Below are positions 43,058 to 58,004 of a DNA stretch of 64,000 nt, in pieces. Origin of the DNA: an uncultured Muribaculaceae bacterium. Its GTDB lineage: Bacteria > Pseudomonadota > Alphaproteobacteria > Rs-D84. Within the stretch, counting starts at the first letter, position 1. Every line of letters begins with the position of its first letter. The stretch is taken from NCBI GenBank assembly GCA_964619545.1, contig CAZUED010000003.1:163-64162 (forward strand), read 5' to 3'. The translations under genes and the position numbers were made by a program. The notes beneath the pieces are model-generated. The model worked only from the letters and a program-made list of their open reading frames with translations. It had not been told where the DNA came from and searched no databases.

Positions 43058-45364
43058 ATGAAAAAACCATTATTTGTTATTCTGGGTATATTATCCTTTA
43101 TACCTGTATCTCACGCTGAAATAATTTCGCGGGTGGATGTCGTCGGCAATCGCCGAATGGACGCAGAATCCGTGCGATTACTTGCCGATGTCAAGACTGG
43201 TCAGAACTTGACCACCGAGGGCGTAAATCAGGCTGTAAAGCGTCTGCAGCAGTCTGGCTATTTTTCCAGTGTTCGTGCGCAAATAGATAATGGAGTTCTT
43301 AAAATAAATGTATCGGAATCACCAACTATAGACAAAGTAACAATCGAGGGTAATGACGATATTTCAACAGATGATTTACGAAAAGAACTGCGATTGAAAG
43401 AGCGTGGCACATTCGATGAATCGGTAATTGGCGCAGATGTTCAACGGATTTTGATGGTCTATCAACGTAAGGGATTTTTCGGAACACGTGTAAATCCACA
43501 AAAAATAGAGCAGGCTGATGGCCGCGTAAATGTTGTCTATGAAATTACCGAGGGGCATCCGACTTATGTGAAAGAAATTGATTTTAATGGGAATAAAAAG
43601 TTTTCATCAAGAACACTAAGGGGTGAGTTGCTATCGCGTGAGCATGCTTGGTGGCGCTTTATGTCACAATTTGATGTGTATGACGAAGATCGGATTCAAT
43701 ACGATGCCCAGTTGTTGCGGCAGTTTTACATGCGTAATGGATTTGCCGATGTTCAAGTTAAAATAGCAAGGGGGGCATTTACACCAGATCGTCAGTATTA
43801 TTCTGTTGTTTTCCAAGTAGAAGAGGGTGCGCGTTACAAGGTTGGAACACTGAAAATAGAAAATCCGTTCAAAGATGTTGATAACGAAGATTTGTATGAT
43901 GCATTGAAAATTGGCAAAGGTGACATTTATAATGTTGATCAGGTCGAGGCAACTATCGCTGCATTACGTGGTGTTGTTGCGGGCAGTGGATACTCTTTCA
44001 TAAACGTTGATGTTGTGCCAGAAAAAGATGATTTTGCGCGGACAATTTCTATGACTTTCAAGATTCAGAAAACGAATCGAATTTATTTGGACAGCATAAA
44101 CATACTGGGAAATGTCCGAACATTTGACAGCGTCATAGATCAACAGCTGGGTATTCGTGCAGGCGACCCGTTTTCATTACAGGAAATAGAGGCTGGTCGC
44201 CAAAGAATGATGCGTTCTCGTTATTATAAAGACGTCCAGATGATTCCATCACGCGTTGCAGATGCAAACTTGATGAATTTGGATGTTCAGATTGAAGAAC
44301 AGCCGACCGGTGAATTATCCGGCGGAGTTGGTTGGTCCAGCATCAATGGCTTTATGGTTGATGCAGGAATTACTGAAACTAACTTTATGGGTCGTGGTCA
44401 GATAGTTCAGTTAAAGGGAAGTCTTGCGCAATATACAAAACAAGCCACTTTTAGCTTTACCGAGCCATATCTATTTGGGCGTGAACTTTCCGCCGGATTT
44501 GATGTAAATTACACGGTTTATAATTATGGTAAATTGGGCAGCTATGGATACGATCGGGACAGCATCAGTGTAGCTGGAAGACTGGGGTGGAAACTGACAG
44601 ATCACTGGACCCAGGGATTGCGTTTGTCTGCAATGTATGATCAGAACTATGATTTGCATGCAACCAATGGTTGGCAACAAGCAAATCTGTATACTTTGGG
44701 GACAAATTTCAAGTATCAAAATTTGGATACGGATTTTACGCAAAATACTCATACTGGTGTGGTTGCAAATTTGGGAGTTGCTTATACTGGATTTGGTATC
44801 AGTACAGAACCATTTATGCGATATAACGGCGACATTACTGGTCTGTTGAATTTCTTTGATAACAGGTGGCAGTTAAAATCAAGTTTGGAATTTGGATATG
44901 TTCAACCACTGGATGGCGATTATATCAGTCGCGTGTATCGTTATTTCTTGGGCGGTGAATCTTTACGTGGTTTCCAAATTGCCGGGATGGGTTCCAGAAA
45001 TTGGGCTTATCAGAATTATGCGCTGGGTGGATTATGGAAGGCAAATGGCAGTACCCAATTAAATTTCCCGGTATTTATTCCTGATGAATACCAGGTTAAG
45101 GGTTTTGTCTTTGCGGACTATGGTATGGTTGGCAAGCCACCAAAAGATGAGTATAAATACCGTCCAACAATAGGGTATTCCTGTCCAGCATCAAACCCAG
45201 GATGTGATAACTTTATCGATCAGGATTTACGCACTAGCGTTGGTGTTGGCGTGTATTGGAATACACCGATGGGGCCGATGAATTTTTCATGGGGTTGGCC
45301 GCTGAAGCTGAATGAATACGACCGAGAACAAAGATTTTTGCTATCATTTGAAACTCAGTTTTAA
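43058..45364 (+). CDS. bamA: outer membrane protein assembly factor BamA
   Basis: signal peptide from the ATG at 43058, POTRA repeats, Omp85 barrel ending ...FETQF. Confidence 0.93.
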   Translation: MKKPLFVILGILSFIPVSHAEIISRVDVVGNRRMDAESVRLLADVKTGQNLTTEGVNQAVKRLQQSGYFSSVRAQIDNGVLKINVSESPTIDKVTIEGNDDISTDDLRKELRLKERGTFDESVIGADVQRILMVYQRKGFFGTRVNPQKIEQADGRVNVVYEITEGHPTYVKEIDFNGNKKFSSRTLRGELLSREHAWWRFMSQFDVYDEDRIQYDAQLLRQFYMRNGFADVQVKIARGAFTPDRQYYSVVFQVEEGARYKVGTLKIENPFKDVDNEDLYDALKIGKGDIYNVDQVEATIAALRGVVAGSGYSFINVDVVPEKDDFARTISMTFKIQKTNRIYLDSINILGNVRTFDSVIDQQLGIRAGDPFSLQEIEAGRQRMMRSRYYKDVQMIPSRVADANLMNLDVQIEEQPTGELSGGVGWSSINGFMVDAGITETNFMGRGQIVQLKGSLAQYTKQATFSFTEPYLFGRELSAGFDVNYTVYNYGKLGSYGYDRDSISVAGRLGWKLTDHWTQGLRLSAMYDQNYDLHATNGWQQANLYTLGTNFKYQNLDTDFTQNTHTGVVANLGVAYTGFGISTEPFMRYNGDITGLLNFFDNRWQLKSSLEFGYVQPLDGDYISRVYRYFLGGESLRGFQIAGMGSRNWAYQNYALGGLWKANGSTQLNFPVFIPDEYQVKGFVFADYGMVGKPPKDEYKYRPTIGYSCPASNPGCDNFIDQDLRTSVGVGVYWNTPMGPMNFSWGWPLKLNEYDREQRFLLSFETQF

Positions 45365-45423
45365 GCTTGACTATCCGCGTTAAAATTCTTTATAATTTTT
45401 GATGAAAAGATAAAGGTGGGAAG

Positions 45424-45570
45424 ATGAAAAAAATTCTTTTGGGTTTGTTGGTTGTTTTCGCATTGGCTGGATGCGGGCAAGTTTATGATCGTGAACCAGT
45501 TGGTGTCGGATTTGACAATAATGAATTAAAATTATCTCCTTGCGCATGCATGCAGGTCTATCGCGCATAA
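45424..45570 (+). CDS. small lipoprotein (48 aa, below the ORF-track cutoff); VirB7-like candidate by position
   Basis: MKKILLGLLVVFALAGCGQVYDREPVGVGFDNNELKLSPCACMQVYRA: lipobox LAGC, SD aaaggtggg, extra Cys pair, 12 nt upstream of a VirB8-fold gene. Confidence 0.6.
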   Translation: MKKILLGLLVVFALAGCGQVYDREPVGVGFDNNELKLSPCACMQVYRA

Positions 45571-45582
45571 AGGCGCGAACTG

Positions 45583-46275
45583 GTGAGCGTCATGGATTTT
45601 CCGGCAGATTATGATACAAAGATGTTTCCGGAAACACGCTACCTTGGGATGGCGCGGGCTTTTGCGATTTGGTCCGCGATTTTGTTTTTATTAATTGCTG
45701 GACTTTCTTGGGCATTGGTTTGGACGATGCGTGCCAGCAGGGTAGAACCTGTTTTGGTTTCAATTTCTGCCGATGGTGCAACTTGGACGGCAGTATTGGA
45801 CGGAACAGGTCGCTTAAATTATTCTGTATCGCGCGCAATGCAAGAGGCAACAGTCGGAAAATTCACAAAACTTTGGTTCAGTATTTCGCGTGATGCAAAA
45901 GAAAATGAATCTAACTGGTGTCAATGCGAACAAACAAAATGTTGGGATGACGATGCGGCTGCGCCGCAGTGCAAAGTTTGTTGCGCTTCGGGCACCAGTT
46001 TATTTTCTAATTTCTTACAAGTTGTGAATGGTGACTTTCGTGAGCGGGCCGCGGCCGGCGAAGAATGGTCGATTGTTTCTGATTCGATTCGTGCAACACC
46101 TGTGGGTGAAATCTCTGACAATGGTGGATTATGGCGTGTTACTGCCAGTGTGAAAATGGGCGCGGGTCGGACGCAAAAGATAGAGGCGTTTGCACGTATC
46201 ATCAAAGCATCCGAAGGCTATCCATCAACAATGGGTTATTATGTCGCAGATTTTCATGCATATCCCGGGGAATAA
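45583..46275 (+). CDS. VirB8-fold bitopic membrane protein with a Cys-rich insert
   Basis: N-tail, TM (FAIWSAILFLLIAGLSWALVW), RVEPVLVSISADG..., terminal EGYPSTMGYYVADFHAY resembling the VirB8 NPLGxxV motif; insert WCQCEQTKCWDDDAAAPQCKVCC. Confidence 0.6.
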   Translation: MSVMDFPADYDTKMFPETRYLGMARAFAIWSAILFLLIAGLSWALVWTMRASRVEPVLVSISADGATWTAVLDGTGRLNYSVSRAMQEATVGKFTKLWFSISRDAKENESNWCQCEQTKCWDDDAAAPQCKVCCASGTSLFSNFLQVVNGDFRERAAAGEEWSIVSDSIRATPVGEISDNGGLWRVTASVKMGAGRTQKIEAFARIIKASEGYPSTMGYYVADFHAYPGE

Positions 46276-46283
46276 AAAATTAA

Positions 46284-46934
46284 ATGAAAACACTAGTATC
46301 ATTTTTTTTCGGAATTATTTTGATGGCTTTGGTCTTGGCTATTGCACTAACGGGCGGCAAGTCATTTGATGCCAGTCGAAATTTTTCTATAAATTCTGTA
46401 ATTTTTCAGCCTGCGGATTTATCGCGAGATCGGATTGAAAAGCCAATACCACTGGATGTTTTATCAGACGAGTTTGTGCGCGACAGCCTGATAAAAAAAT
46501 TTGTGAACGAGTATTTTTACATAGCGCCAGATAGCTTTGATATGGCGCGTCGTAGAAGAACAGACAGCACACTTGCAAGAATGTCCGATCCCGCAGTATT
46601 TGATCAATGGAATGAAAAGTTTGCCGAAGATATGGAAAATCTGGCAGATCAAAATGTAATGCGTCGGGTTATTGTAAATAGCATTAATCTGCCAGCTAAC
46701 AGCGAGTATTTCCAAGTGTCATATGACTTGCTGACATGGGATGTTGCGAACGACATCACTCGTCAGCCATTAATCCAAAAAAACAAATCAATGTCTGTTC
46801 GATTGGATTTCGAAAAAGGGGTTCGGCAACAGCAAACAAACGGCGCACGTTTTGATGTAAAAAAATATTTGGTTGATGGTGGTGATCCTGCTACAATTTT
46901 CAGATTCCGAGTGTTGGAAGTAGTTGTGAAATAA
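46284..46934 (+). CDS. VirB8-fold bitopic membrane protein (second paralogue)
   Basis: N-terminal TM, SLIKKFVNEYFYI (compare FIKEYIRARNEI in 17877-18530), YFQVSYDLLTWDV, terminal DPATIFRFRVLEVVV. Confidence 0.55.
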   Translation: MKTLVSFFFGIILMALVLAIALTGGKSFDASRNFSINSVIFQPADLSRDRIEKPIPLDVLSDEFVRDSLIKKFVNEYFYIAPDSFDMARRRRTDSTLARMSDPAVFDQWNEKFAEDMENLADQNVMRRVIVNSINLPANSEYFQVSYDLLTWDVANDITRQPLIQKNKSMSVRLDFEKGVRQQQTNGARFDVKKYLVDGGDPATIFRFRVLEVVVK

Positions 46935-46944
46935 GGGATAAATA

Positions 46945-47805
46945 ATGATGGTTGAAGTAAAAATACTTTTTAGAAAATTAATTAAATCGCTGGTGATAAT
47001 TGGTGTTGCCTTCATCCTTAATCCCTCATCCTTCATCCTTTCTGCGCAAGCTGCGGAAGAGGCGGATCCATTCATAATAAATGCGGCGCTGGGCGAAGAT
47101 GCGAAATTGCCAGATGCAAAAATTTCCGCACCCGAGCCAGTTCAGTTTGATACAGCGCCATTACCACTTAATGATGGCGCAGGCTTTTATGATGTTTCTG
47201 ACTTTGACATTTCGGGCATATATTTGGGTATGCCTTTCGAGGATGTTCAAACTTTGTTTTTCAAAAGCCATTCTCTTTATACGCCACTGAAAAATAATTC
47301 TATAATTTATACATTGGCAGGTGATTGGCGTATTAATTTGGACTATGAATGTCGCCAGCAAGGTATAGTTGTTCCAGCTGGTTTGGAAAATTGCATTTTG
47401 TCTGCGGCGCGAAAACGCGGATTGTTGTACCCGGCCCAGCTTCGTCTGATACGTGAATCCACTGGTGAAACGATAGACATTTATTTTACTAGCAATGCTA
47501 CAGATAACGTGGTTTGGCGGGTAGTATATAAAAATGATGTAAATGATTTAGAAGGCGCGGCAGAAAAGTTTTCGCGTCAACGGGATAATAAAATTTTGTC
47601 TTTTTGGCAGGATGTTGTCGATAAATACGGCCAGCCAAACAGCGGAAATGATAAATGGGCATCCAGTGATAATTCTTTTGATCCGATGCTGACGGCATAC
47701 TATGGCATGCTGGATTTGACCGACCAAGGCTTGATGGCGTCTGATGCAGCAAAGAATGTATCCGATGCGCGTGAAAATTTCCGGGCAAAACCTTATGCGT
47801 TCTAA
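46945..47805 (+). CDS. secreted hypothetical protein (286 aa)
   Basis: long signal peptide ending SAQA/AEEADP; same operon-like spacing as the two VirB8-fold genes; no family recognised. Confidence 0.6.
   Translation: MMVEVKILFRKLIKSLVIIGVAFILNPSSFILSAQAAEEADPFIINAALGEDAKLPDAKISAPEPVQFDTAPLPLNDGAGFYDVSDFDISGIYLGMPFEDVQTLFFKSHSLYTPLKNNSIIYTLAGDWRINLDYECRQQGIVVPAGLENCILSAARKRGLLYPAQLRLIRESTGETIDIYFTSNATDNVVWRVVYKNDVNDLEGAAEKFSRQRDNKILSFWQDVVDKYGQPNSGNDKWASSDNSFDPMLTAYYGMLDLTDQGLMASDAAKNVSDARENFRAKPYAF
47009..47043 (+). repeat. five tandem degenerate heptamers inside the signal-peptide coding region
   Basis: ccttcat ccttaat ccctcat ccttcat cctttct; the same heptamer family occurs at 57161-57181. 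Confidence 0.6.
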
Positions 47806-48145
47806 AAACACTTATCGCGCGGGACTTTTTGCTGAGTTTTTGGCACGAGTTTATTTGCGTATTCATGGATTCAGTATTGTAAAATCCAGATACATAACGG
47901 GTCAACATACCAAACGTGCAGAAATTGATATAATTGCAATACGCGGAAATTTAATTGCGTTTATAGAGGTTAAAAATCGACCAAATGTCCGCACTGCATT
48001 TGATGCGATCGGTCATACCCAGGCGTTAAGGTTGCGACGTGCCGCCGAAACATGGATTGCAAAAAATCGTTGGCATGGTGATGCCAGATTTGATGTAATA
48101 GTTGTAACCCGTTTACATATTCGGTGGTTTAAAAACGCTTTGTAA
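47795..48145 (+). CDS. yraN: YraN-family (UPF0102) endonuclease-like protein
   Basis: GLFAEFLARVYLRIHGFSIV...EIDIIAIRGNLIAFIEVKNR; ATG at 47795 overlaps the upstream stop. Confidence 0.8.
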   Translation: MRSKNTYRAGLFAEFLARVYLRIHGFSIVKSRYITGQHTKRAEIDIIAIRGNLIAFIEVKNRPNVRTAFDAIGHTQALRLRRAAETWIAKNRWHGDARFDVIVVTRLHIRWFKNAL

Positions 48146-48392: not shown

Positions 48393-48420
48393 AAAACGCG
48401 GCGGTTGCCGCGTTTTATTT
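48393..48420 (+). terminator. rho-independent terminator
   Basis: aacgcggc-ggtt-gccgcgtt plus T-run. Confidence 0.7.
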
Positions 48421-48764
48421 TATCACTGCTGATTTTATCAAGGATAAGTCTTCTTTAATTCCGTCTATTTTTAATTGCAGCTGACCAATACCCGATTCCA
48501 GAATTGTTGTTCTGTTTTCCAGCGTGGTTATGCGGGCATCAGATTTTTTATTTTTTCCATCTCTTCGTTTGACAGCATAGATTGCATATCAAATGCAGCT
48601 GCAATAAAAGATTGTTCTTGAATATCGTATGGGTTGGAAGTTTTTTTGTCAGCCAATTTCTTTTCAACAACTGCTATCAATTCTTTTTTATGTTTTTCAA
48701 ACATCCGAGTGGCATTTATAGATTCTGCAACTTTTTTTCAATCATCTGTAAGCACTAATGGCAT
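48415..48764 (-). pseudogene. disrupted small coiled-coil gene downstream of the terminase (in-frame TGA plus frameshift)
   Basis: good SD (aaagga) and ATG at 48764; codon 9 is TGA (48738-48740) beside an A7 run; reading continues KKVAESINATRMFEKHKKEL...EEMEKIK, then shifts frame at the A-runs 48541-48558 into SDARITTLENRTTILESGIGQLQLKIDGIKEDLSLIKSAV. Confidence 0.6.
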
Positions 48765-48819: not shown

Positions 48820-49656
48820 TTAAATCCTAAACTCGGTTTTTGCCTGGACGGGACGCAAAGTTTGACCAAGTGGACGAACCGGGGCTGCGTTCAGGTCCAG
48901 CGCCCCAGCAATCGCGTCCAGACCGTCATCGTGCCCCGAATCGCCCATCGGCGTCCAACCCAGCATTTCAGACAGCAATGGAGTCGCCTGAATTCTTTGG
49001 TGGGCCCAAATACGACCCGTCGTCAGTAGTGGCTCTACCGCGTTCAGAATCCGAGATTCCTTGCGCGTGTGATTTATGATTTTTTGGATAACAACAGATT
49101 GGTCGTGTTTTTTTGCGACTTCGCGCAAAATCTCGGGCAAGGCGTTTCCCAGCCCATTTACTTCTATCCCGATTATATGCGCGCCATGTATTTTCATAAA
49201 TCCCAAAACTTTCTCGCACTGAGTCGCCAGTGGATGCAAATCATTGTCATCCACAATCAAGTACCGAACATCATGAATAAATGCGCGCCGATTTTTATCG
49301 TCTCGGTAAAGCAAGACACATACACTGGAATCGGCCCCTTTACGCCCGCCTGATGGATCCCAATAGCACGATACGCCCGTTATCAAAAATTCTTTATCAA
49401 TTCCCAGTTTCGCTGTGCGAGCATCAAACTCTCCGTCATAAAAATAAAGCGCGCCTGGATCCAGCCGCGCTTTATCTTCCGAAATATATTCCAGCATCAT
49501 TTGACTGGAAAAATGACGTGGTCCGACCGTTTCCCTTAATTCTTCTATTTTTTCCAGTGGAAAAATATCTGGCCATGCAGGTATGCCGCCAGAATCAATT
49601 ATCGGTAGGCGGAATAATTGGTATCCGCGTAAAAATGGCAAGGTCTGTTCATTCAT
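48820..49656 (-). CDS. phage terminase large subunit, C-terminal nuclease half (fragment of a split gene)
   Basis: WPDIFPLEKIEELRETVGPRHFSSQMMLEY, then RNaseH-like motifs CYWDPSGG, IIGIEVNGLGN, HDDGLDAIAGAL; no SD, and it starts right after the dnaB terminator. Confidence 0.7.
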   Translation of the reverse strand: MNEQTLPFLRGYQLFRLPIIDSGGIPAWPDIFPLEKIEELRETVGPRHFSSQMMLEYISEDKARLDPGALYFYDGEFDARTAKLGIDKEFLITGVSCYWDPSGGRKGADSSVCVLLYRDDKNRRAFIHDVRYLIVDDNDLHPLATQCEKVLGFMKIHGAHIIGIEVNGLGNALPEILREVAKKHDQSVVIQKIINHTRKESRILNAVEPLLTTGRIWAHQRIQATPLLSEMLGWTPMGDSGHDDGLDAIAGALDLNAAPVRPLGQTLRPVQAKTEFRI

Positions 49657-49663
49657 GGGAAAA

Positions 49664-49686
49664 TAAAAAAAACGCGCTATGCGCGT
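49664..49686 (-). terminator. rho-independent terminator after dnaB
   Basis: acgcgc-tat-gcgcgt hairpin followed on the minus strand by a T-run. Confidence 0.65.
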
Positions 49687-49726
49687 CTGTTTGATGCCTC
49701 AATTATATCAAATTTTTCATAAAAAA

Positions 49727-51268
49727 TCAATCTAAAAATGGAACGTCAGCCATATCAGGCACTTCGGCATTACCATTGCTTGCGCTAGCAGGTGCAGAAT
49801 AAGATGGTTCTTCCGATTGATAACCTTCATCCAAATCATCAAACAAAGAATATTCCCCACTGAATTTCAGTTTAATCGTTTCTGGTTTTCCATGACGATT
49901 TTTACCGATAATCAATTCGGCCTTACCGCGTGATGCGTCCAGACGCTTGCGCCAATTGTCTGCCTTGTTGGTTGTAAATTTTTCGGAATGGTCACCGACA
50001 ACATCAGATGGATCGCGACCCTGCAAGTAATACTCTTCACGATAAGTGAACATAACAATGTCGGCATCTTGTTCAATAGACCCAGATTCGCGCAAGTCCG
50101 ACAGCAATGGTCGTTTGTCATCGCGTGATTCGACTGCGCGGGAAAGCTGAGACAGCGCGATAACCGGCGCATCCAATTCCTTGGCCAACATTTTCAGACC
50201 CCGGGTGATTTCTGATAATTCATTAACACGGCTGTCGTTTTTACGAAGAGTTGGTGACTGCATCAACTGCAAATAATCGATAACGATAAGTGCAATACCG
50301 CCATGCTTACGGGCAATACGGCGTGCGCGTGCGCGCATCATAGGGACACTCATCCCCGGGGTATCATCAACCAGCAAAGGAACATTAGATAGTGCATCAG
50401 AATACTGCGACATCCGCAGAAACTCTTGATCATTCAGGCTGCCGTTACGCATAGAACTGGATGGAATTTTCGCCTGGGACGACAGAACGCGAGCCGCCAG
50501 TTGAGATGCTGACATTTCAAGGCTGAAAAACACGACCGCGCCACGATACTTTTTATTTGCGCGATTTGCCATAATTGCGCTGGCCGCGTTAAAGGCAATA
50601 TTCATCGCAACCGTGGTCTTTCCCATAGCAGGACGACCAGCAATTATTACCAAATCAGACTTGTGCAATCCGCTGATAGATTTATCCAAATCACGCAGAC
50701 CTGTGGTCAGACCCGATAATTTTCCATCGGCCTTATAAGCAATTTCGGCTTCTTCTAATGCAACGCGAAGTGCCGCCCCCAGTGGAGATGCCCCGCGGTC
50801 GGACGATCCGGTGGTGGATAAATCAAACAGTTTTTGTTCGGCTATTTCTATTTGTCTGTCTACCGGATTGTCTAAATCTTCGACAAATGCCGAATCGGTA
50901 ATGTTTTGACCTATATTAATCAGGTGACGCCGCAAAGCATTATCATAAACTATTTTGGCATAGCTTTCTATATTTACAACAGATGCGCCGGCACTCGCCA
51001 GTTCTGACAAATACTCGACCCCGCCGACAGAATCAAGAACACCTTGTTGTGTCAGATAGTTTTTTGCCGTAATGATGTCAAATGGGATTCCGGCGGCGAA
51101 TTGCTTTTCGGCAAGTTTAAAAATCTCTTGGTGGGCGGGATGAGTAAAATGTTCAGAGTGTAAAAAATCGCTGACTTTTTCCAGTGCGCGGTTGTTCATC
51201 AAGACTGCTGCCAGCACGGCTTGCTCAGCTTCCAAATTAGTCGGTAAAGACTTGGGAGTAAAATCCAT
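49727..51268 (-). CDS. dnaB: replicative DNA helicase DnaB (with an acidic C-terminal tail)
   Basis: DnaB N-domain (PTNLEAEQAVLAAVL), Walker A GRPAMGKTT, IDYLQLM, SQLSRAVE; ~45-aa acidic tail ...EVPDMADVPFLD. Confidence 0.93.
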   Translation of the reverse strand: MDFTPKSLPTNLEAEQAVLAAVLMNNRALEKVSDFLHSEHFTHPAHQEIFKLAEKQFAAGIPFDIITAKNYLTQQGVLDSVGGVEYLSELASAGASVVNIESYAKIVYDNALRRHLINIGQNITDSAFVEDLDNPVDRQIEIAEQKLFDLSTTGSSDRGASPLGAALRVALEEAEIAYKADGKLSGLTTGLRDLDKSISGLHKSDLVIIAGRPAMGKTTVAMNIAFNAASAIMANRANKKYRGAVVFFSLEMSASQLAARVLSSQAKIPSSSMRNGSLNDQEFLRMSQYSDALSNVPLLVDDTPGMSVPMMRARARRIARKHGGIALIVIDYLQLMQSPTLRKNDSRVNELSEITRGLKMLAKELDAPVIALSQLSRAVESRDDKRPLLSDLRESGSIEQDADIVMFTYREEYYLQGRDPSDVVGDHSEKFTTNKADNWRKRLDASRGKAELIIGKNRHGKPETIKLKFSGEYSLFDDLDEGYQSEEPSYSAPASASNGNAEVPDMADVPFLD

Positions 51269-51371
51269 GTCTCAAACCATACAACACGAATTTTAATTTG
51301 CAATGATTTTTCTTGCTTTGTTATAAAAAAAAAACTACTCTGTTTGTCAATAAGAACAAGAGGATTCAGTC

Positions 51372-52388
51372 ATGGCATGGGAAGAAATCTGTTTTCCAAA
51401 TAACCTTAGAAATATAAGGTTGTCGCGCGGAATGCGTATGACCGAAGTCGCCAAAAAATCCGGCCTTTCGCTGTCAGCAATGTCCAAGGTTGAAAAGGGG
51501 GTGCGCCGGTTAAAACAAAGTCAACTGATGCAGCTTTGCACAATTCTGGACTGCAAGTTGGCCGACATCTTTATAAAGGCTGACGATGAAAAGGCTACCA
51601 AATGGCAATCTGAAATGCAACGTCGCTTGACTGAAAATGAAACCGCTGGTTTGAAGGTATTTGGTGCGGGGATACGGGTTTTACGCCGTGAAGTTGGTAA
51701 GACTATCGCCCAGGCGGCCCATGATGCTAAGATGACGCTAAGCGTATATCACAAGATAGAAACTGGCCAGCGAGAGGTTTATGAAAACGAAATAGAAAAT
51801 TTGGCAAAGGCAATGGGTAAATCGATTGATGAAATGTTCAAGGCAATCGCAGGACTTTATAATTCTGGTGCGCTGAACAGACAAATCGACAAGGCCGAAG
51901 AACGTGTTCGCGAAGCGCTGAAAGTTGGTAAGTCCGAATCTAATTTAGATATGGGCAGCGCGATTTATGGCGCAACGGTTTATGATTCTGTGCGGAAAAA
52001 TTTGGTTCCGGTATATGGAACCGCGAATGGAAAAAATATAGTATTTATGAAATCTGATGACAATATGCTGCCACCATTGCCAAAGATAAAAAGCGGCAGT
52101 GGGATATATGCTGTTCAGGCACCTGCTGGTCGGTTGGGACCGCTGTTTCCGCACAAATCACATTTGCTTGCAAATCCTGGTATAATGCCTGTGGCTGGTG
52201 ATTTAGCGGTTTTGTTTGATGATGATTACGAAAATATCGAGCCTCGTACCCAGGCGACCGCACGGATTGTCATGCTGAAAGAGGATAAAAATGGCACGCT
52301 AATCGGTGTTCAGTCTTATCCAGAAGAGAAAATACAGATAAAGAACGGCAAAAAGCGACTGCATAAAATTGTGCAGATTGTCTGTTAA
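51372..52388 (+). CDS. transcriptional regulator with two tandem XRE-type HTH domains and a C-terminal S24/LexA-like domain lacking the catalytic Ser
   Basis: HTH1 LRNIRLSRGMRMTEVAKKSGLSLSAMSKVEKG, HTH2 IRVLRREVGKTIAQAAHDAKMTLSVYHKIETG; C-terminus VPVYGTANG...AGRLGPLFP...GDLAVLF...RLHKIVQIV resembles the LexA/CI fold but has GRLGP where GDSMxP is expected. Confidence 0.65.
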   Translation: MAWEEICFPNNLRNIRLSRGMRMTEVAKKSGLSLSAMSKVEKGVRRLKQSQLMQLCTILDCKLADIFIKADDEKATKWQSEMQRRLTENETAGLKVFGAGIRVLRREVGKTIAQAAHDAKMTLSVYHKIETGQREVYENEIENLAKAMGKSIDEMFKAIAGLYNSGALNRQIDKAEERVREALKVGKSESNLDMGSAIYGATVYDSVRKNLVPVYGTANGKNIVFMKSDDNMLPPLPKIKSGSGIYAVQAPAGRLGPLFPHKSHLLANPGIMPVAGDLAVLFDDDYENIEPRTQATARIVMLKEDKNGTLIGVQSYPEEKIQIKNGKKRLHKIVQIVC

Positions 52389-52411
52389 TAATTTGTAAAA
52401 TAGAGAGAGAA

Positions 52412-53047
52412 ATGAGAGAACTGACTTCCATAATAGCGCAGCGCTTGTTGAACTTGTATCGCCAGGCTCATGTGATTGATGGCGGCTGGGCAGCTGTTAA
52501 TAAGGCATTGTTGGCCGAGGCAGATAATGAAGTTCTGGCCGATTTGCAAAAATTGCCGAACGGGGGAAAGTTGGTTCAGCATATAAAAAATTTGCAATCT
52601 GGAAAAACGGAAGTCAGCGGAATAGAACGCGAAGTTATACCATATGGTGGTAAGATGGACAGCGCGGTAAAGGCAACGCAAATTTCCAACAAGGATTTGA
52701 AAGAGTTAGAATCTGCGCTGGCAGAATTTCAATCAGACGAAGAACATATTGAAAAAATTAAAAATTTATCATTTGTTCAATCTTTTGGTGAAAAGTGGAT
52801 TTCCGGGGTTCGGTCATCATTATCTGGCAAGCCAGAGTTAGAGAAAAAATGGCTTGAAGTTTCCAGATCCGCACGGGCATATGATTTATGGAATAAAGCC
52901 TATGCCGTTTTAATTCCGCCAGTTTCGGACAGAGCACGTGCCGAGATTCAGGCAGAATTATCTGAATATGAAACTTATCTGCCGATGTTTGGCGAAGACG
53001 GAACGCAACTTTTATCGCGACTCCGCTCATTTGTAAGCAGTTTGTAA
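52412..53047 (+). CDS. hypothetical protein (211 aa)
   Basis: intact ORF 24 nt after the regulator gene; terminator follows; no family recognised. Confidence 0.55.
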   Translation: MRELTSIIAQRLLNLYRQAHVIDGGWAAVNKALLAEADNEVLADLQKLPNGGKLVQHIKNLQSGKTEVSGIEREVIPYGGKMDSAVKATQISNKDLKELESALAEFQSDEEHIEKIKNLSFVQSFGEKWISGVRSSLSGKPELEKKWLEVSRSARAYDLWNKAYAVLIPPVSDRARAEIQAELSEYETYLPMFGEDGTQLLSRLRSFVSSL

Positions 53048-53077
53048 AAAAAACGCGGTGGTTCCCCGCGTTTTTTA
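53046..53077. terminator. bidirectional hairpin terminator at the right edge of the terminase-splitting segment
   Basis: aacgcgg-loop-ccgcgtt flanked by an A-run and a T-run; the stop codon of the terminase N-half lies inside the T-run. Confidence 0.65.
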
Positions 53078-53680
53078 ATTTTCAACCTTATAAATTGTGT
53101 CAACTGCATGTGGTGTGCCGATATAAATCATGGTGCCGCTAGGGGAAAGAATAAAGTCCAGTTCCCGCAGACGCATGCGTAACATTTCTCGTTTTTGAGA
53201 AGTATTGCTGGTGTTGGGAACTTCCACGTCATCGCAGATAATCATATCGGCGCGCTGACCTGTTATATTTCCATGAATACCTTGGCAGACTACAGAAGGT
53301 TCCCGAATTCCAACTTGGCGCGAGATTGTAATTTTATGCATTCCCCATTCTTTTTTAACGTTTGGCAATAAATCTCGGCATTCTGGATGATTTTCCAGAA
53401 TATGTTTTATATGTGACACCATTCTTGATGCCAGATTGGATTCTGCAGAAAGAATAAGTATACGTGTTTGTGGTCTTATAGAAAGTACCCATGCGGCGAA
53501 AATGCCAACAACTGATGATTTTCCTGAATGTCTAAATGCCAATAAAAGCGCCCGACGGGGCGGATTTTCAAGGCTGTTTACCAGAAATCTCAAAATGTTT
53601 TTATGATGTGTTGGTGTTTCCATTCCCAGTATCTGGTTCCATGCATCTAAAAAATTTTTCGCGGATTCATAAAGTTCCAT
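53075..53680 (-). CDS. phage terminase large subunit, N-terminal ATPase half (fragment of a split gene)
   Basis: Walker A-like AFRHSGKSSV, Walker B MIICDDVE, coupling motif IYIGTPH; reading frame ends 10 codons later in the neighbouring terminator; start taken at the ATG at 53680 (ORF extends to 53731). Confidence 0.7.
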   Translation of the reverse strand: MELYESAKNFLDAWNQILGMETPTHHKNILRFLVNSLENPPRRALLLAFRHSGKSSVVGIFAAWVLSIRPQTRILILSAESNLASRMVSHIKHILENHPECRDLLPNVKKEWGMHKITISRQVGIREPSVVCQGIHGNITGQRADMIICDDVEVPNTSNTSQKREMLRMRLRELDFILSPSGTMIYIGTPHAVDTIYKVEN

Positions 53681-54215
53681 AATCATCAATACTTTCACTG
53701 GGGCCTGTATCTGCCGGGGTTCCATAATCATTTATCATTCGCGGCATGGCAGTACTCAGCACTGATAAAAGATTATTATAAAGCCCCAGTGCAGCGCCTC
53801 CACCAGTTTTATCTTCTATTAATTCTTTAATGACATCCATCTGATGCACGACATTGTCATGAATATTTTGCCACTGGGCAATACTGATTTCAACTGAGTT
53901 TAAATCTCGGAAAGCCTCTAGTATAAAATTAAAATCTGCGTTCAGGTTTTCGGGATCAATTTTTGCAGCTGGCTGATAATCGATAAAGCGGGATAGACTT
54001 ATCTTGCGAAATATATCTATACGAGAATTTTGCACGGGTGGATTTGCAAAAGAAATTATTCCACCAATCATATTCTCATCATATTGCAAATTATATTCAG
54101 TAGAATCCAAAATAACTTCATTGATTGCCACATGAACGTCTAATGGCTGAAAAAAAGGAAAAGCAAAGGCAAAGCAATATGCTTCGCCGTCACCGACATA
54201 AGAAATCTTGTACAT
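53667..54215 (-). CDS. T7 gp17-like tail-fibre N-terminal (tail-attachment) domain only, 182 aa
   Basis: YKISYVGDGEAYCFAFAFPFFQPLDVHVAINEV...ISFANPPVQNSRIDIFRKISL...PENLNADFNFILEAFRDL follows the T7 fibre N-domain pattern; no shaft or receptor-binding part. Confidence 0.5.
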   Translation of the reverse strand: MYKISYVGDGEAYCFAFAFPFFQPLDVHVAINEVILDSTEYNLQYDENMIGGIISFANPPVQNSRIDIFRKISLSRFIDYQPAAKIDPENLNADFNFILEAFRDLNSVEISIAQWQNIHDNVVHQMDVIKELIEDKTGGGAALGLYNNLLSVLSTAMPRMINDYGTPADTGPSESIDDYGTL

Positions 54216-54232: not shown

Positions 54233-54580
54233 TCAGGCAATCAATCCATCCAGTCTGGAAATGAATGATTTCAACAGATTGGATTTTGGTGTTTTTATTT
54301 TATAAAGCTTGTCCAGATTGGATTTCTTTTTTTCATCAAATGGTTCTTCGGTTTCTTCACGCAGTCTTTTCAGAACAGCCTCTTCGGTCATTCCTTTATT
54401 TGTCATTCCTGCGCTGCCGTATTTTGCACGTTGTGCGGCTAATGTTTTTTTTACCAGATTGATTTTTGCTTTTTCATCCGCCGCAATTTTTTCTAAAATT
54501 CTTTTTCGTTCTGACACGTTTTCTTTTTTGTCTTGTTTTTGATTTAAGATGTCTGTGACATCTGATACAAGTTGTCCCAT
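54233..54580 (-). CDS. Lys-rich helical hypothetical virion-associated protein (115 aa)
   Basis: intact ORF between the gp12-like and fibre-like genes; no family recognised. Confidence 0.5.
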   Translation of the reverse strand: MGQLVSDVTDILNQKQDKKENVSERKRILEKIAADEKAKINLVKKTLAAQRAKYGSAGMTNKGMTEEAVLKRLREETEEPFDEKKKSNLDKLYKIKTPKSNLLKSFISRLDGLIA

Positions 54581-54590
54581 TTTTTTCTCC

Positions 54591-56315
54591 TTAGATTAAA
54601 TACCAGCCTTCTACTGATATGCCCAGTATGCTTACAGGTAATGGTTCGCTACCCGATATAGTCCAAAGAGGACAGGTAGTATCGTCAATTGTTCCCAATG
54701 AACCTACAGAAACATCTCCGCAGTATCCAGGCGAGTCTACACCAAGTGCATCATTTGGAAGTTGTGCACGAACTGCATTTATAAATAAAGATTTGGTATT
54801 CAGGCATCGTGCGGAAATTTTATGCACTCGAATTTTTTTCGGAGCTCGTCCACTGGCGAATAAAGGCATCGCAGCAGCCGTATGTGAAAATCCGAATTGA
54901 CCAGAATCAAGAGTTTCTGCTGCTGAAAATTTTTCTATGAATACGCCTGATTCGCGCGCGACTATTACAAATGTTTCACCATTCAGCACAGCGACAGATT
55001 TGAATGATCCCAGTGTTTTGTAGATGCCCCAGGCAGAAATTTCCAATGCCGAGTTTTTATTCAGTACTGCCATGGAACCATCTGTCATCACCACAAACAA
55101 CTGGCGTGTTTTATCATTATATGCCAGATCCACGGGATGCTTCATCAAGTGACCGGAAATCGCGCACAAGTTTGGTGCATTGTAGTTTTCACCTAACTCA
55201 TCCATAATCATTTCTCTGATTTCGTTGCCACCTTTGGAAACAAAAATAGTGCTGCGGTCTATCTTTTGTGGCTGCAGATAAATCGAAGAAATACTTCCTG
55301 CATTGGTATGTTGTCTGATGTCCATGGATGATGGAGTTAATGGTTTTGCGCTGATTGCCCATTCGCCTGCTGTGGTTAAAATTTGTAAATTATCGCTGGA
55401 TACAACCGTGCAAATTTGTTGGCGTGCAGATGAAAGCAGTGTCAGAAAAATGGCTTGGTCATCCAATCCTGTTTCAGCATTAAAGTTTTGATGATCACCA
55501 ACGCATGACATCCAAACCCCACATGGCCACGCGCGCGAACCCCCAAATACCAATCGGTCCTGATGAAAAGTGATGCTGCGTGGCCATCCGCGGCGGACAC
55601 CAAATGCGGCTTCGCGCCAATCAGAAATTGCCGCACTGGGCAGCGAGTAAGTTCCATTAGTGTATGCAACGATAGTGGTAGAATTTACATACTCGTAAAT
55701 GACCCATTGCTTACCCATCAAGTAAAGTCTGCCATTGAGATTTTCAGGTGTCCAAAAAGCGGCACTGGCAGTAAAAGTAGCATAGTTATTCCCATTCGCA
55801 TTACTTGATACAGAAATTTTTATACCAGCTGCATCGTCAAATTTCATAAATGGCATATTTCGTGACATATCATCGTTTGTTGAAAAATCAAATGTGGACA
55901 GATAAAACGCGCCACCTGTTTTTTTCAGAACTCGTGGCTGAAAATCCTGATGCACGAAAATCATGGTATCAAAACGTTGCGCATATTGCATGTTACACAA
56001 TGCATCCGCGCCCCAAGGCGAGATCAAGGCCTGGACCATATTCTGACCATCATAAATTTTCATCTGACCATCAGAAATAGCCAGCATATAATTTTCTGAA
56101 TCGGAAATAGAAAAAGGAATCAAAATTGCACCATTTTTTGTCGCAGCAATCCGAATTGTTCCATTCCGCCGTGAAATAGCCCCCGATGCCAAGACATCCA
56201 TATTTTCCATACGCGACAAGCCGCGGGATGAAACATCCAAATCACCACGCGCAAAAAATTCTGGCGATACTTCCCCCAATGCGAAAGAGTTCTGATTGTG
56301 AATAAATTTTCCCAT
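54591..56315 (-). CDS. T7 gp12-like tail tubular protein B (nozzle)
   Basis: N-terminus HNQNSFALGEVSPEFFARGDLDVSSRGLSRMENMDVLASGAISRRNG parallels T7 gp12 (NLKGGISQQPDILRYPDQGSRQVNGW...GLQKRP); C-terminus PVSILGISVEGWYLI parallels NIIGCGWEGNYL; beta-rich. Confidence 0.6.
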   Translation of the reverse strand: MGKFIHNQNSFALGEVSPEFFARGDLDVSSRGLSRMENMDVLASGAISRRNGTIRIAATKNGAILIPFSISDSENYMLAISDGQMKIYDGQNMVQALISPWGADALCNMQYAQRFDTMIFVHQDFQPRVLKKTGGAFYLSTFDFSTNDDMSRNMPFMKFDDAAGIKISVSSNANGNNYATFTASAAFWTPENLNGRLYLMGKQWVIYEYVNSTTIVAYTNGTYSLPSAAISDWREAAFGVRRGWPRSITFHQDRLVFGGSRAWPCGVWMSCVGDHQNFNAETGLDDQAIFLTLLSSARQQICTVVSSDNLQILTTAGEWAISAKPLTPSSMDIRQHTNAGSISSIYLQPQKIDRSTIFVSKGGNEIREMIMDELGENYNAPNLCAISGHLMKHPVDLAYNDKTRQLFVVMTDGSMAVLNKNSALEISAWGIYKTLGSFKSVAVLNGETFVIVARESGVFIEKFSAAETLDSGQFGFSHTAAAMPLFASGRAPKKIRVHKISARCLNTKSLFINAVRAQLPNDALGVDSPGYCGDVSVGSLGTIDDTTCPLWTISGSEPLPVSILGISVEGWYLI

Positions 56316-56842
56316 TAGAACCTCGTTGATATAAGTGAAAAGTCAGGTATGTCATTGCTGGGTGACACAGTGCTGTCTATGAATTTTGCCGCGCGCAGCT
56401 CGGATTCAAACAATGCTGCAATGGTGCGTAATAAATTCTGGTCGCCGGTCAATGGCATACAGAATTCCCGTGCAAGTTGCAATGCAGCGACATTTGAAAA
56501 ATATGAAGGATAATTTTCTGGTCCCATTCGCACAACAGCAGTGATTGAAATTTTATCGGCCGGTGCAGAAATTCTGTTCCCGCTAGTTTGATAAAGCAAG
56601 CAATCACAATCCAAAACACGAAGAATTTCTACTGGCAAAAGAAAATCACCATCTGTGGTCTTGCTTAAATTGAATTTTTTCTGGGCAAATTTCCACGGAT
56701 GCGACGCCAGCAAAGAATCAATCGTAGTATCAAATAGGGTCTTTGCGACTTTGGCTGCAGCACTATCGTCGTTAAAAGACTGAATGGGATTTTCACCAAT
56801 TTTCAATAAAGCAATAGAACACAGATCAATTTTAGTAAGCAT
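56315..56842 (-). CDS. T7 gp11-like tail tubular protein A / adaptor
   Basis: DLCSIALLKIGENPIQSFNDDSAAAKVAKTLFDTTIDSLLASHPWKFA matches the characteristic N-terminal pattern of this family; stop overlaps the next start. Confidence 0.6.
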   Translation of the reverse strand: MLTKIDLCSIALLKIGENPIQSFNDDSAAAKVAKTLFDTTIDSLLASHPWKFAQKKFNLSKTTDGDFLLPVEILRVLDCDCLLYQTSGNRISAPADKISITAVVRMGPENYPSYFSNVAALQLAREFCMPLTGDQNLLRTIAALFESELRAAKFIDSTVSPSNDIPDFSLISTRF

Positions 56843-56865: not shown

Positions 56866-57108
56866 TTATGCCAAAGCACTGGTTGTTACATTCTGGGATG
56901 TGATGTTAATTTTTTTGATTACGGTGTTGTCGGAAGCATTGATAATTACAATGTCGCCAATATTCATCAAAGTGCGGACCGGATTAAAAAAACCAGTAGT
57001 ACTGATGGTCGCAATACTTTCTTGGGCGGCATAGTGCCACAGAGTAAATCCATTTGCATACGCAATAACGGACAAGTTTTTGTTTTGGAAATACATGAAA
57101 AACTCCAT
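56866..57108 (-). CDS. small hypothetical phage protein (80 aa)
   Basis: ORF 56866-57150, start taken at MEFFMYFQ...; sits between the capsid and gp11-like genes. Confidence 0.45.
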   Translation of the reverse strand: MEFFMYFQNKNLSVIAYANGFTLWHYAAQESIATISTTGFFNPVRTLMNIGDIVIINASDNTVIKKINITSQNVTTSALA

Positions 57109-57112
57109 TGTT

Positions 57113-57180
57113 TGAGGGATGAAGGAGGAAGTTTGAGGTAAAAAAATCAATAAAACTAAAACCTAATCCTTCATCCCTCA
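57113..57180. repeat. 14-bp perfect inverted repeat built from heptamers, just downstream of the capsid gene
   Basis: tgagggatgaagga (57113-26) is the reverse complement of tccttcatccctca (57167-80); 40-nt loop with further pairing; no T-run after it on the transcribed strand. Confidence 0.7.
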
Positions 57181-57188: not shown

Positions 57189-58004
57189 TTATTCGGCGCA
57201 ATTGATTTTGACGATCCCGTCCTGATCAATCAGCACGCTGCCCTGGGACATGCTGTTGCTGATAAAGTGCGCAGCGCGTTCGCCATTCCAAAAGATGTCA
57301 GATTTGACTTCTTGGCCACATGCATGACCGATAGCGGACGAGTGATACATAAAGCACTTACGCATATTGGTACCGGTTGGCAGGCCGTTATGCATAATCC
57401 AATTGATGCCCAACCACTTACGCAGTTCGAATCCACCAATCAAAGGTGTTTCGTTGCCGACGTATTCAGCCGAAACGAATTCATCCATAGACAAAAGCTC
57501 ATTCCACTGATGAACACCGACGACGCAGAATCTGCGACCATCGTCAGGAACGTCTTTAGAGTTCAATGCTTCGACCGCGGACAAAATAATTTCTTTGGTC
57601 AAAGCGGCAGTTCCATCTCCGACAGCGGTTGTTGCATTGGCCATAGATGTTATAATCAGCTCGTCAGTCTTGCGACCCAATGCATATGCACCTGCGCTTG
57701 CGACAACCCGACGTTCATCAATGTTGATTTTTAATTCATCCAAAGCATCAACCCAATCGCCCGCATAATAGTCCTGCAATACGCATTCAACAGGCTCGTG
57801 GTCCAAGTTCATGACAGGAACTAATCCGTGGCGAGATTTGGTAGTGGCAGTACCACGACCAACTTTTTGGAAAGTTGTACTGCTGCCTATAACGCCGGAT
57901 TTACTGCGTATTGTGTTGCGAAGCTTTGTCCCCATTTGTTGATAAGCAAGATGAACATCGGCCTCGAATTGTTTTACGAATATCTGGTCTATTGATTCAG
58001 ACAT
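57189..58004 (-). CDS. T7-like (HK97-fold) major capsid protein, 271 aa
   Basis: FVKQFEADVHLAYQQMGTKLRNTIRSKSGVIGSSTTFQKVGRGTA...LDELKINIDERRVVASAGAYALGRKTDELII parallels the T7 gp10 N-terminal pattern; strong SD aaggag. Confidence 0.7.
   Translation of the reverse strand: MSESIDQIFVKQFEADVHLAYQQMGTKLRNTIRSKSGVIGSSTTFQKVGRGTATTKSRHGLVPVMNLDHEPVECVLQDYYAGDWVDALDELKINIDERRVVASAGAYALGRKTDELIITSMANATTAVGDGTAALTKEIILSAVEALNSKDVPDDGRRFCVVGVHQWNELLSMDEFVSAEYVGNETPLIGGFELRKWLGINWIMHNGLPTGTNMRKCFMYHSSAIGHACGQEVKSDIFWNGERAAHFISNSMSQGSVLIDQDGIVKINCAE

Follow-up and report, generated by a model that had tools for sequence, protein, structure and literature searches.

A T7-type large terminase encoded as two separate genes on either side of a host dnaB operon in the alphaproteobacterial order Rs-D84

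A 64,000-nucleotide stretch from an uncultured alphaproteobacterium of the order Rs-D84 (contig CAZUED010000003.1; this whole stretch is called the window) carries a T7-type large terminase (TerL) that is split into two open reading frames (ORFs), both on the minus strand: TerL-N at 53075–53731 (218 aa) and, downstream from it, TerL-C at 48820–49656 (278 aa). The split is old. The same breakpoint is present across Rs-D84, both pieces are under purifying selection and keep their motifs intact, the gene order around them is conserved, and the DnaB encoded between them is of the host type. In the reading that we consider likely, the two ORFs are one TerL kept as two genes since before the radiation of Rs-D84, with fragments that complement each other, inside an inherited podovirus-derived cluster and with a host dnaB operon between them. 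Physical reassembly of the enzyme, packaging of DNA and release of particles are inferred.

In textbooks, large terminases figure as motors of a single chain, and covalent coupling is regarded as necessary for their ATPase and nuclease activities. A TerL made from two genes throughout an order, and broken within the ATPase fold, is a natural experiment on how the motor assembles and on the contiguity that it requires. The Rs-D84 are widespread uncultured Alphaproteobacteria of gut, rumen and termites with genomes of ~1 Mb, and the cluster is undescribed in the literature searched: we found there no terminase described as split or bipartite, no phage-like element reported from Rs-D84 or Enterousia, and no T7-like gene transfer agent (GTA).

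One terminase fold in two reading frames

Both pieces belong to the same terminase families, and not to different ones. PHROG 38 matches TerL-N on profile positions 270–458 and TerL-C on 481–710; the NCBIfam model termin_lrg_T7 (NF033889) matches TerL-N at 3–189 and TerL-C at 323–500 of its 500 positions. With NF033889, TerL-N scores 226 bits vs. a cut-off of 150, whereas TerL-C alone scores 97.7, below this whole-protein cut-off, as expected for a fragment. In Pfam, TerL-N is a Terminase_6N and TerL-C a Terminase-T7_RNaseH-like plus Terminase_6C protein (Terminase_6C at 98–253; PF22530 at 122–216, score 32.3 vs. cut-off 27). TerL-N aligns with residues 27–212 of T7 gp19 (4BIJ), and the joined N + C sequence spans the junction in a single tblastn alignment to TerL genes of Autographiviridae (~26% identity). 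The ASCE ATPase and the RNase H-like nuclease of a T7-type TerL are both recognized by motifs and profiles; in place of a single polypeptide there are two ORFs, each with its own stop and start codons, 3.4 kb apart.

Aligned with full-length homologues of 468–499 aa (40–45% identity), the two pieces are separated by a clean break and are co-linear parts of one former gene. TerL-N ends with ...IGTPHAVDTIYKVEN* and TerL-C starts with MNEQTLPFLRGY..., where intact homologues read ...GTPHTxDTIYxTxx-xGFLxGF.... At most three residues are lost at the break. An earlier reading made from the sequence only had proposed this split at these two ORFs, with little or no terminase sequence lost, and the alignment agrees with it on both counts. 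It had also called the pieces an ATPase half and a nuclease half. Both activities are indeed represented, but the break is located inside the ATPase domain, ~10 residues past motif III, and not at the ATPase/nuclease boundary.

The position of the break follows from structural comparisons. In an AlphaFold (AF2) model of the full-length homologue P0040 (pLDDT 88.5), motif III (GTPH, 189–192) closes strand 179–188. The residue equivalent to the break (~202/203) is in a loop, after which come strand 210–214 and helices 231–250; the nuclease starts from near residue 268, with the first catalytic Asp at 300. ATPase-only crystal structures (P74-26, with 250–258 residues, and the N-domain of T4 gp17) align in Foldseek over 249–279 columns, well past the break, which places it inside the ATPase domain. 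TerL-C is thus more than a nuclease: its residues 1 to ~96 contain the last strand and the lid helices of the ATPase domain, then the linker, and the nuclease profiles start at residue 98.

The real start of TerL-N is probably Met16 or Met18 (at 53686 or 53680), since the in-frame stretch upstream contains a stop codon in nine relatives and the homologues are ~200 aa long. The first 15 codons of the listed ORF (53686–53731) overlap the end of p182, the gene upstream of TerL-N in the cluster, and are probably untranslated. An exact look-up of TerL-N as called from 53731 gave no match; the deposited gene starts further downstream.

The same break across Rs-D84

In a scan with one genome per GTDB species, 237 species genomes have a relative and encode the C piece. 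The best 80 loci were fetched (loci are designated by L numbers); several species of Ca. Enterousia are among them, as is one closed chromosome (L071; 958,618 bp). Ca. Enterousia is placed in the uncultured order Rs-D84, with reduced genomes, and its metagenome-assembled genomes (MAGs) are of 0.75–1.0 Mb (PMC12306168). A search with the joined sequence returns >100 clusters of stand-alone C pieces (270–314 aa, 53–83% identity), from MAGs named "Alphaproteobacteria/Rickettsiales bacterium" with contigs up to ~400 kb. With TerL-N, there are 803 homologues, the best 120 of which are all 185–224 aa long (69–100% identity), on contigs up to 857 kb.

All loci examined agree in the residue of the break: TerL-N ends with ...GTPHxxDTIY(K/R)x.. 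and TerL-C starts with M..PFLRGY. The stop codon of the N piece, the start codon of the C piece and the N-terminal extension of the latter are conserved across loci. Where the position of the N piece is covered, it is intact in 64 of the 68 loci, with three deletions and one frameshift as exceptions. The spacing, on the other hand, varies: ~3.3 kb in most loci, 4.3 kb in L039, 6.1 kb in L001 and, in one termite-gut lineage in which extra genes entered the segment between the pieces, ~15.6 kb, with both pieces intact. The loci of that lineage (L088 10001–10609 and L047 10001–10822) are on the same contig (Ga0123353_10000004), and the extra genes include a DUF5131 protein, a DEAD/Cas3-like helicase and a methyltransferase.

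Mapping by tblastn gives a near-universal gene order: LipB; then endolysin, p73, scaffold, (HC2-like), capsid, p94, tube A, tube B, p115, [p182] and TerL-N; then, on the minus strand relative to these, unk211, HTH and dnaB; then TerL-C, portal, Bbp19 and p90; and finally YraN, two unknowns, VirB8-like and BamA. The holin-like p90 is a coiled-coil membrane protein that matches XhlA weakly, and p182 is missing from about a third of the species. The three-gene cassette between the TerL pieces is present in essentially every relative that covers the region. The host flanks are identical in most relatives and also in the closed chromosome L071. The block from capsid to TerL-N is deleted in L003, L068 and L008, where TerL-C survives; L008 has lost the portal as well.

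Fifty-eight IMG/VR contigs with this TerL-C (L092–L149), of ~4.5–21 kb and many near 10 kb, are filed as viral. The presence of dnaB beside TerL-C was checked in only three of the 58; loci from bacterial genomes of the same species include the host dnaB. Their filing as ordinary viruses or proviruses is probably wrong. The IMG/VR scan revealed no free phage with a closely related intact TerL, all its matches being through the stand-alone C piece.

Selection and vertical inheritance

Walker A (FRHSGKS), Walker B (CDDxE) and GTPH are 100% conserved in 56 N-piece orthologues. The acidic residues of the nuclease (D100, E165, D243, D244 and D247) are 100% conserved in 81 C-piece orthologues. The median Nei–Gojobori dN/dS, from species pairs with 86–98.5% DnaB identity, is 0.072 for TerL-N and 0.110 for TerL-C. 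Among the other cluster genes, the portal has 0.041, the capsid 0.042 and tail tubes A and B about 0.10, the range across the cluster being 0.04–0.19; the host genes have 0.039 (DnaB) and 0.055 (BamA), and the two companions of dnaB in the cassette 0.050 (HTH338) and 0.083 (unk211).

In pairwise comparisons, the protein distances of every cluster gene track those of DnaB (r = 0.66–0.83). Relative to DnaB, the capsid diverges at 0.70x and the portal at 0.82x; TerL-N roughly keeps pace with DnaB. Neither DnaB nor BamA is as conserved as capsid and portal. On the strength of the correlation with DnaB distances and of the identical host flanks, the cluster is co-inherited vertically under strong constraint, and is not a decaying prophage. 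The sequence-only reading had left two options, an inactivated terminase or a two-piece terminase. The second is the one favored by the 237 species genomes, the common break residue, the invariant catalytic residues and the low dN/dS (0.07 and 0.11) of the two pieces, none of which would be expected of a gene inactivated recently.

A host replication operon between the pieces

The cassette contains dnaB, a regulator with two helix-turn-helix (HTH) domains (HTH338) and a gene for a 211-aa protein (unk211), with no recombinase in Pfam and NCBIfam scans, as first described. The suggestion that this DnaB may be phage-derived is not sustained. It passes the cut-offs of two bacterial equivalog models (NF006606, 607.5 vs. 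540; TIGR00665, 500.8 vs. 385.25), fails that of the phage model TIGR03600 (phage_DnaB; 411, below 498.65) and co-diverges with BamA (r = 0.89), on which grounds it is assigned, from profiles and distances, as a host-type replicative helicase and not a phage-type one. The acidic C-terminal tail that had inspired the suggestion is real and occurs order-wide as ...PD(M/I)xD(I/V)P(D/F)...; its near-terminal Phe occurs in the subgroup of the window only. The tail (window 49727–49830) recalls the DDDIPF tip of the SSB C terminus. There is no second dnaB within the 64-kb window. That this one is the sole dnaB of the genome has indirect support from the ~1-Mb genomes (PMC12306168), the dN/dS of 0.039 and the correlation with BamA.

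The 3.4-kb segment was also suspected to be an inserted element. A repeat search found no target-site duplications or inverted repeats around it, and shared words at the junctions do not exceed those of shuffled controls in 67 loci; the 13-nt junction match in the window is merely the T-runs of two terminators. With no recombinase and no flanking repeats, and with the cassette in essentially every relative, the segment is better seen as a host replicative-helicase operon than as a mobile insertion.

In 73 of 79 loci, dnaB and TerL are on opposite strands. The start codons of dnaB and TerL-C overlap as CATG in 48 of these 73 (for example L012, L013, L024 and L071, in the last around 9968–9969), and they would do so in 16 more with a TerL-C start at an in-frame ATG further upstream. 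With divergent starts overlapping in this way, the ribosome-binding region and promoter of each gene must be inside the coding sequence of the other. A Shine–Dalgarno (SD)-like GGAG precedes the ATG of the C piece in many species and is, in the CATG loci, the antisense of dnaB codons 4–5. On the other side of the cassette, the TerL-N and unk211 stops form a 4-nt overlap in 24 loci and are 0–6 nt apart in ~21 more. In most species, then, the cassette is embedded antisense in the terminase with essentially no spacer, and the particle genes and the dnaB operon must have overlapping transcripts. The head-to-head overlap of the start of an essential gene with that of a phage-derived gene is an unusual regulatory architecture.

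The subgroup of the window and a neighboring termite group (in which dnaB is not inverted) have a spacer of 70–110 nt before TerL-C, with an extended −10 (TGATATAAT), a hairpin with T-run and finally the ATG. In the window, this leader contains a promoter-like site TTGATT-17-TGATATAAT (49730–49702; a 10/12 match, with TG) and then a terminator-like hairpin (z = −3.1). Both TGATATAAT and the hairpin recur in L001 and L010, two loci with dnaB on the other strand. Since the hairpin is kept where dnaB points the other way, it is not simply the dnaB terminator; it is a conserved leader element of TerL-C that, in this genome, also ends dnaB. The first description of TerL-C, as a gene without SD right after the dnaB terminator, is right for the missing SD and for the hairpin with T-run, and has to be revised for the nature of the hairpin. 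Hairpins followed by T-runs do occur at both junctions, as seen before; in most relatives, there is none at the TerL-N/unk211 junction, where the stops abut or overlap.

Proposed assembly of the enzyme from two polypeptides

The TerL genes are part of a chromosomally fixed, vertically inherited, podovirus-derived cluster with endolysin, scaffold, capsid, tubes A and B, a fiber stub, the split TerL, portal, Bbp19 and a holin-like protein. With the break in a loop ~10 residues past motif III, polypeptide 1 has the nucleotide-binding core, and polypeptide 2 has the final strand and lid helices of the ATPase together with linker and nuclease. Most likely, the two would be translated independently and would then come together without a covalent bond, by fragment complementation, to form a working packaging ATPase-nuclease on the portal. 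Non-covalent reassembly is suggested by the conserved starts and stops, the variable spacing, the lack of a complete ATPase fold in either piece and the absence of a joining device.

Several points weigh against this proposal. The association of the pieces, the particles and the packaging are predictions from the genes. Kanamaru et al., in 2004, reportedly found that the separate ATPase and nuclease domains of T4 gp17 keep partial activities and do not package in trans; a split TerL is thus not trivially functional. TerL-C evolves faster than TerL-N (mean distance 0.39 vs. 0.25). Within the cluster, we recognized no small terminase (TerS), no internal core proteins and no full-length receptor-binding fiber. 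The block deletions in L003, L068 and L008, and the loss of the portal in L008 and in the window, imply that the cluster is at least occasionally dispensable. Further, a palindrome near HTH338 (see below) is absent elsewhere, so that nothing links yet the regulator of the cassette to the phage-like genes.

The derived state of the cluster in the window

In the window, dnaB is inverted and on the same strand as TerL, an arrangement found in 6 of the 79 loci (window included), all of them the closest relatives. The inversion (within 49657–51371) took along ~40 nt of the dnaB leader; no inverted repeats were seen at the ends of the inverted segment. In nearly all relative loci, the portal comes after TerL-C. 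Beside TerL-C of the window, the portal, Bbp19 and the 5′ part of p90 are deleted, the p90 remnant comprising residues 24–90 only, and there is no portal or Bbp19 anywhere in the 64 kb. The sequence-only reading was silent on this deletion, as on the break within the ATPase fold. An independent assembly of run SRR8925824 (L150) has the same arrangement. Without a portal somewhere else in the genome, the cluster is here probably unable to produce particles filled with DNA.

Such losses lead to the most serious alternative, decay in this genome: the split would be ancient, but the portal-less cluster would be a remnant with both TerL pieces functionless and not yet degraded. This is quite conceivable, if short of probable, and it partly overlaps with the two-gene reading without excluding it. 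Besides the startless p90, shared with the independent assembly, it can draw on L008, where both the portal and the capsid-to-TerL-N block are gone, and on the TerL-C of the window, which has no SD and is directly behind a hairpin and T-run. Yet the remaining cluster genes are intact, with dN/dS of 0.06–0.11 in comparison with the nearest relative L006, and all invariant TerL residues are retained. TerL-C does stand out in the comparison with L006 (8876–9712), with dS 1.26 and dN 0.13 vs. dS 0.4–0.7 and dN ~0.04 in the neighboring genes. However, its distances to outgroups are equal for the window and L006, and a relative-rate test for relaxed selection after the loss of the portal shows no acceleration in the window lineage. 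The divergence points to a recombination tract beside the portal deletion rather than to decay. In addition, the window belongs to one contig of ~65 kb, so the portal could be elsewhere in the genome.

Other origins of the two genes

Instead of completing each other, the two pieces could have been recruited separately for cellular tasks, for example as a stand-alone ATPase and as an RNase H-like nuclease in repair or defense. Separate genes up to 15.6 kb apart, different rates of evolution and the persistence of TerL-C where TerL-N is lost (L003, L068 and L008) fit with such an exaptation. We consider it improbable all the same: the N piece is without the last strand and the lid, the C piece keeps ~96 conserved residues of the ATPase domain, which makes sense only if the fold is completed in trans, and both are in order within a complete capsid/portal/tail-tube cluster under even stronger selection.

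The pieces of the proposed two-gene TerL could also be joined at expression, by a split intein, by RNA splicing or trans-splicing, or by a programmed excision of the dnaB cassette (cf. the skin and nifD elements). In most species the cassette has no intergenic DNA around it, which gives it an intron-like look, and a precedent is known in herpesviruses. Their terminase pUL15 is a packaging ATPase-nuclease with a coding sequence interrupted by several kb with opposite-strand genes, its two exons flanking the antisense UL16 and UL17. These exons are spliced into one mRNA and one protein, whereas the Rs-D84 pieces have their own starts and stops and no splicing signal. (The hinge region of pUL15 is discussed in PMC6843332.) The alignment with full-length homologues leaves no intein-sized extra sequence at either end of the break. 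Rfam scans at the gathering threshold and at E ≤ 1 revealed no group I/II intron or ribozyme, only sub-threshold sRNA-like matches on the terminator hairpins. The junction repeats are at chance level, there is no recombinase, and the stop, the start and the N-terminal extension of the C piece are conserved over gaps of 3.3–15.6 kb. Excision would, moreover, remove the essential dnaB. Joining at expression is therefore very unlikely.

Hardly better than that, and if anything slightly worse, is a recent inactivation of a prophage terminase by insertion or rearrangement of a dnaB-carrying segment, the other option of the sequence-only reading. Whoever has only the window sees 3.4 kb of unrelated genes in the middle of a phage gene, the second part of which has no SD. 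But the same split occurs in 237 species genomes with purifying selection on both pieces, there is no recombinase, target-site duplication or inverted repeat, and the intervening genes co-diverge with the host. An assembly or binning artefact, a chimera of phage and host DNA such as can be feared with a metagenome-assembled genome, has next to no probability, the same architecture being repeated in ~80 independent assemblies from many studies, the closed circular chromosome among them, and in independent ENA, JGI and Logan contigs.

Relatives with an intact TerL and known systems

The closest clusters with an intact TerL are compact (~10 kb) and chromosomal: L086 (3320–12373), L087 (3664–12546) and L091 (3403–12572), with a larger version in Roseospira (L085). 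Their order is S24 repressor (minus strand), small genes, portal, Bbp19, scaffold, capsid, tube A, tube B, two small genes, TerL, Hydrolase_2 and three small genes. Portal, Bbp19, scaffold, capsid, tubes A and B, TerL (40–45% identity) and Hydrolase_2 are homologous to those of Rs-D84. In these clusters, however, TerL is one gene of 479–499 aa, the portal comes first and the endolysin last, an S24 (LexA/CI-type) repressor is alongside, and the host contexts are others. Compared with this layout, the portal block and the endolysin block of Rs-D84 have traded places, and dnaB is inside TerL. From this swap, the split probably arose during a rearrangement, and not by simple insertion. L086, L087 and L091 have no integrase or replication genes; they may be undescribed GTA-like elements or mini-prophages.

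With the T7-type TerL (gp19; NF033889; 4BIJ, 8DGC), the Rs-D84 enzyme shares the ASCE ATPase followed by an RNase H-like nuclease, the joined sequence being co-linear over the whole length, and the clustering with T7-type scaffold, capsid, portal and tail tubes A and B. It differs in being made of two polypeptides broken in the ATPase domain, with ~26% identity to any cultured phage TerL, and in that its genes are chromosomal, vertically inherited and outside any replicating phage genome.

The split-intein DnaE of cyanobacteria is a naturally split enzyme, and GafY/GafZ of the Caulobacter GTA are, reportedly (Tran and Le, in 2024, cited in PMC12946183), a split form of GafA. As in Rs-D84, one ancestral protein exists there as two genes that must cooperate. 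In contrast to DnaE and similar cases, the Rs-D84 pieces have no intein halves, no covalent religation is expected, and the break is within a catalytic fold and not between domains.

Pfam and PHROG scans of the cluster in the window, and the Pfam matches of L001, L003, L088 and L090, contain no integrase, excision or replication module; the only replication gene at the cluster is the host-type dnaB. As judged from genomes, the cluster has the features by which GTAs are recognized, being chromosomally fixed, vertically inherited, under purifying selection and without integration or replication genes. It is a candidate for a podovirus-derived, GTA-like "viriform". The GTAs (RcGTA, CcGTA and FpGTA of Faecalibacterium; PMC12946183, PMC9662315) likewise have phage-derived head, tail, packaging and lysis genes without replication or integration, fixed, vertical and under purifying selection, and FpGTA I resembles the present cluster further in its size (~10 kb), its short-tailed-phage type and its gut host. 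FpGTA of Faecalibacterium, with an intact TerL, is the one podovirus-like GTA on record (PMC12946183). The known alphaproteobacterial GTAs (RcGTA type) are HK97 siphovirus-like and also have an intact TerL. FpGTA occurs in Firmicutes. GTAs are defined by particles with random host DNA, in pieces too short for the whole cluster; in Rs-D84, what points to particles is a set of genes, for capsid, scaffold, portal (in relatives), tail tubes, an endolysin-like and an XhlA-like protein. None of the described GTAs has a split terminase or an essential host operon inside. If the Rs-D84 cluster is a true GTA, Alphaproteobacteria would have in it their first T7-like one, and the podovirus-like GTAs would number only two overall. 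Genomes so reduced rarely keep ~10 kb of dispensable DNA, and the particle is thus probably important to these organisms.

A more far-reaching and rather unlikely picture can be drawn. The Rs-D84 cluster would be a new podovirus-type GTA or another particle-forming viriform, held in ~1-Mb genomes under tighter constraint than the core replication genes, with a motor made from two polypeptides broken in the ATPase fold and with late genes that run antisense through the essential dnaB operon. Firing of the particle genes would collide with dnaB and the regulator and silence them, a commitment switch of a terminally differentiating producer cell. Any regulatory purpose of the transcript overlap is speculation.

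Features of the window

The features of the cluster, the cassette and the flanks are listed in Table 1. The window also has ORFs of the size of rpoB and rpoC, tRNAs and a 5S rRNA, which identifies it as chromosomal DNA.

Table 1. Location of the terminase pieces, the cassette, the phage-derived genes and the host flanks in the window
Feature	Position	Strand	Remarks
Host flank: BamA, VirB8-like, two unknowns, YraN (UPF0102)	43040-48145	+	Same flank in most relatives
Deletion scar	48418-48704	-	58-aa orphan ORF (48528-48704) and startless p90 C-terminal remnant (48418-48530)
TerL-C	48820-49656	-	Residues 1 to ~96, rest of ATPase domain and linker; ~97-278, RNase H-like nuclease (D100, E165, D243/D244/D247)
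TerL-C leader	49657-49730	-	Extended -10 promoter-like site; hairpin 49688-49670 with T-run; ATG without SD
dnaB	49727-51268	-	Pfam DnaB and DnaB_C; bacterial-type replicative helicase with acidic C-terminal tail
dnaB/HTH338 divergent intergenic	51269-51371	.	Degenerate palindrome; ~40-nt dnaB leader moved in the inversion
HTH338	51372-52388	+	Pfam HTH_3 twice, HTH_31; two XRE-type HTH (12-65, 97-151)
unk211	52412-53047	+	211 aa, family-less, clade-restricted, all-helical; last gene of the dnaB-HTH-unk211 cassette
Bidirectional hairpin	53045-53074	.	A-/T-runs between the convergent TerL-N and unk211 stops; -14.1 and -14.7 kcal/mol, z = -2.8 and -3.7
TerL-N	53075-53731	-	ATPase-core piece; Walker A FRHSGKS, Walker B CDDVE, motif III GTPH; listed ORF start 53731
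p182	53667-54215	-	T7 fiber N-terminal-like; faint Phage_T7_tail match for a p182 orthologue
p115	54233-54580	-	Tail module
Tail tubular protein B	54591-56315	-	Pfam/PHROG scans; Tube, phrog_376 and phrog_394 among the tail-module matches
Tail tubular protein A	56315-56842	-	Pfam/PHROG scans; same tail-module matches as tube B
p94	56866-57150	-	Head/lysis module
Major capsid protein	57189-58004	-	Pfam Phage_capsid_2, 5e-69; Phage_T7_Capsid
Lys/Ala-rich HC2-like protein	58312-58800	-	HC2; 162 aa, histone H1-like, between scaffold and capsid
Scaffold, T7-type	58877-59575	-	Head module
p73	59505-59714	-	Small ORF
Endolysin-like protein	59738-60190	-	Hydrolase_2
Host flank: LipB	60293-60976	-	Then PPDK

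HTH338 had been described as a dual-HTH/S24-like regulator. The two HTH domains are confirmed, and the S24 (LexA/CI-type) domain finds no support: Pfam gives only HTH families and the PDB profile search only HTH matches. Among 23 orthologues, there is no invariant Ser at the place expected for the S24 dyad, while G276-D277 and H331-K332 are invariant. The C-terminal domain, of unknown fold, is conserved, with 75% mean column identity across the 23 species. Of 81 loci, 55 have a perfect palindrome TTGAC-N8-10-GTCAA just upstream of HTH338, in every case on the side of dnaB, between the two genes. No other intergenic site of the 20-kb loci has it. The palindrome overlaps the predicted promoter of the regulator, which suggests a putative autoregulatory operator of HTH338. 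In the window, the palindrome is degenerate (about 51333–51351).

For unk211, no family was found in Pfam, PHROGs, NCBIfam or the PDB profile search, and Foldseek gave no fold match in PDB or BFVD for its AF2 model (pLDDT 81.8). There are 549 homologues, all unnamed.

The HC2-like gene is hidden from tblastn by low-complexity filtering. A gap of 489–872 nt is present at its position in all 51 loci that cover scaffold and capsid. The protein may be an internal DNA-condensing head protein. In the flank, between BamA and YraN (window 45583–47805), the VirB8-like gene and the two unknowns are conserved in place and evolve fast, with mean distances of 0.39–0.62.

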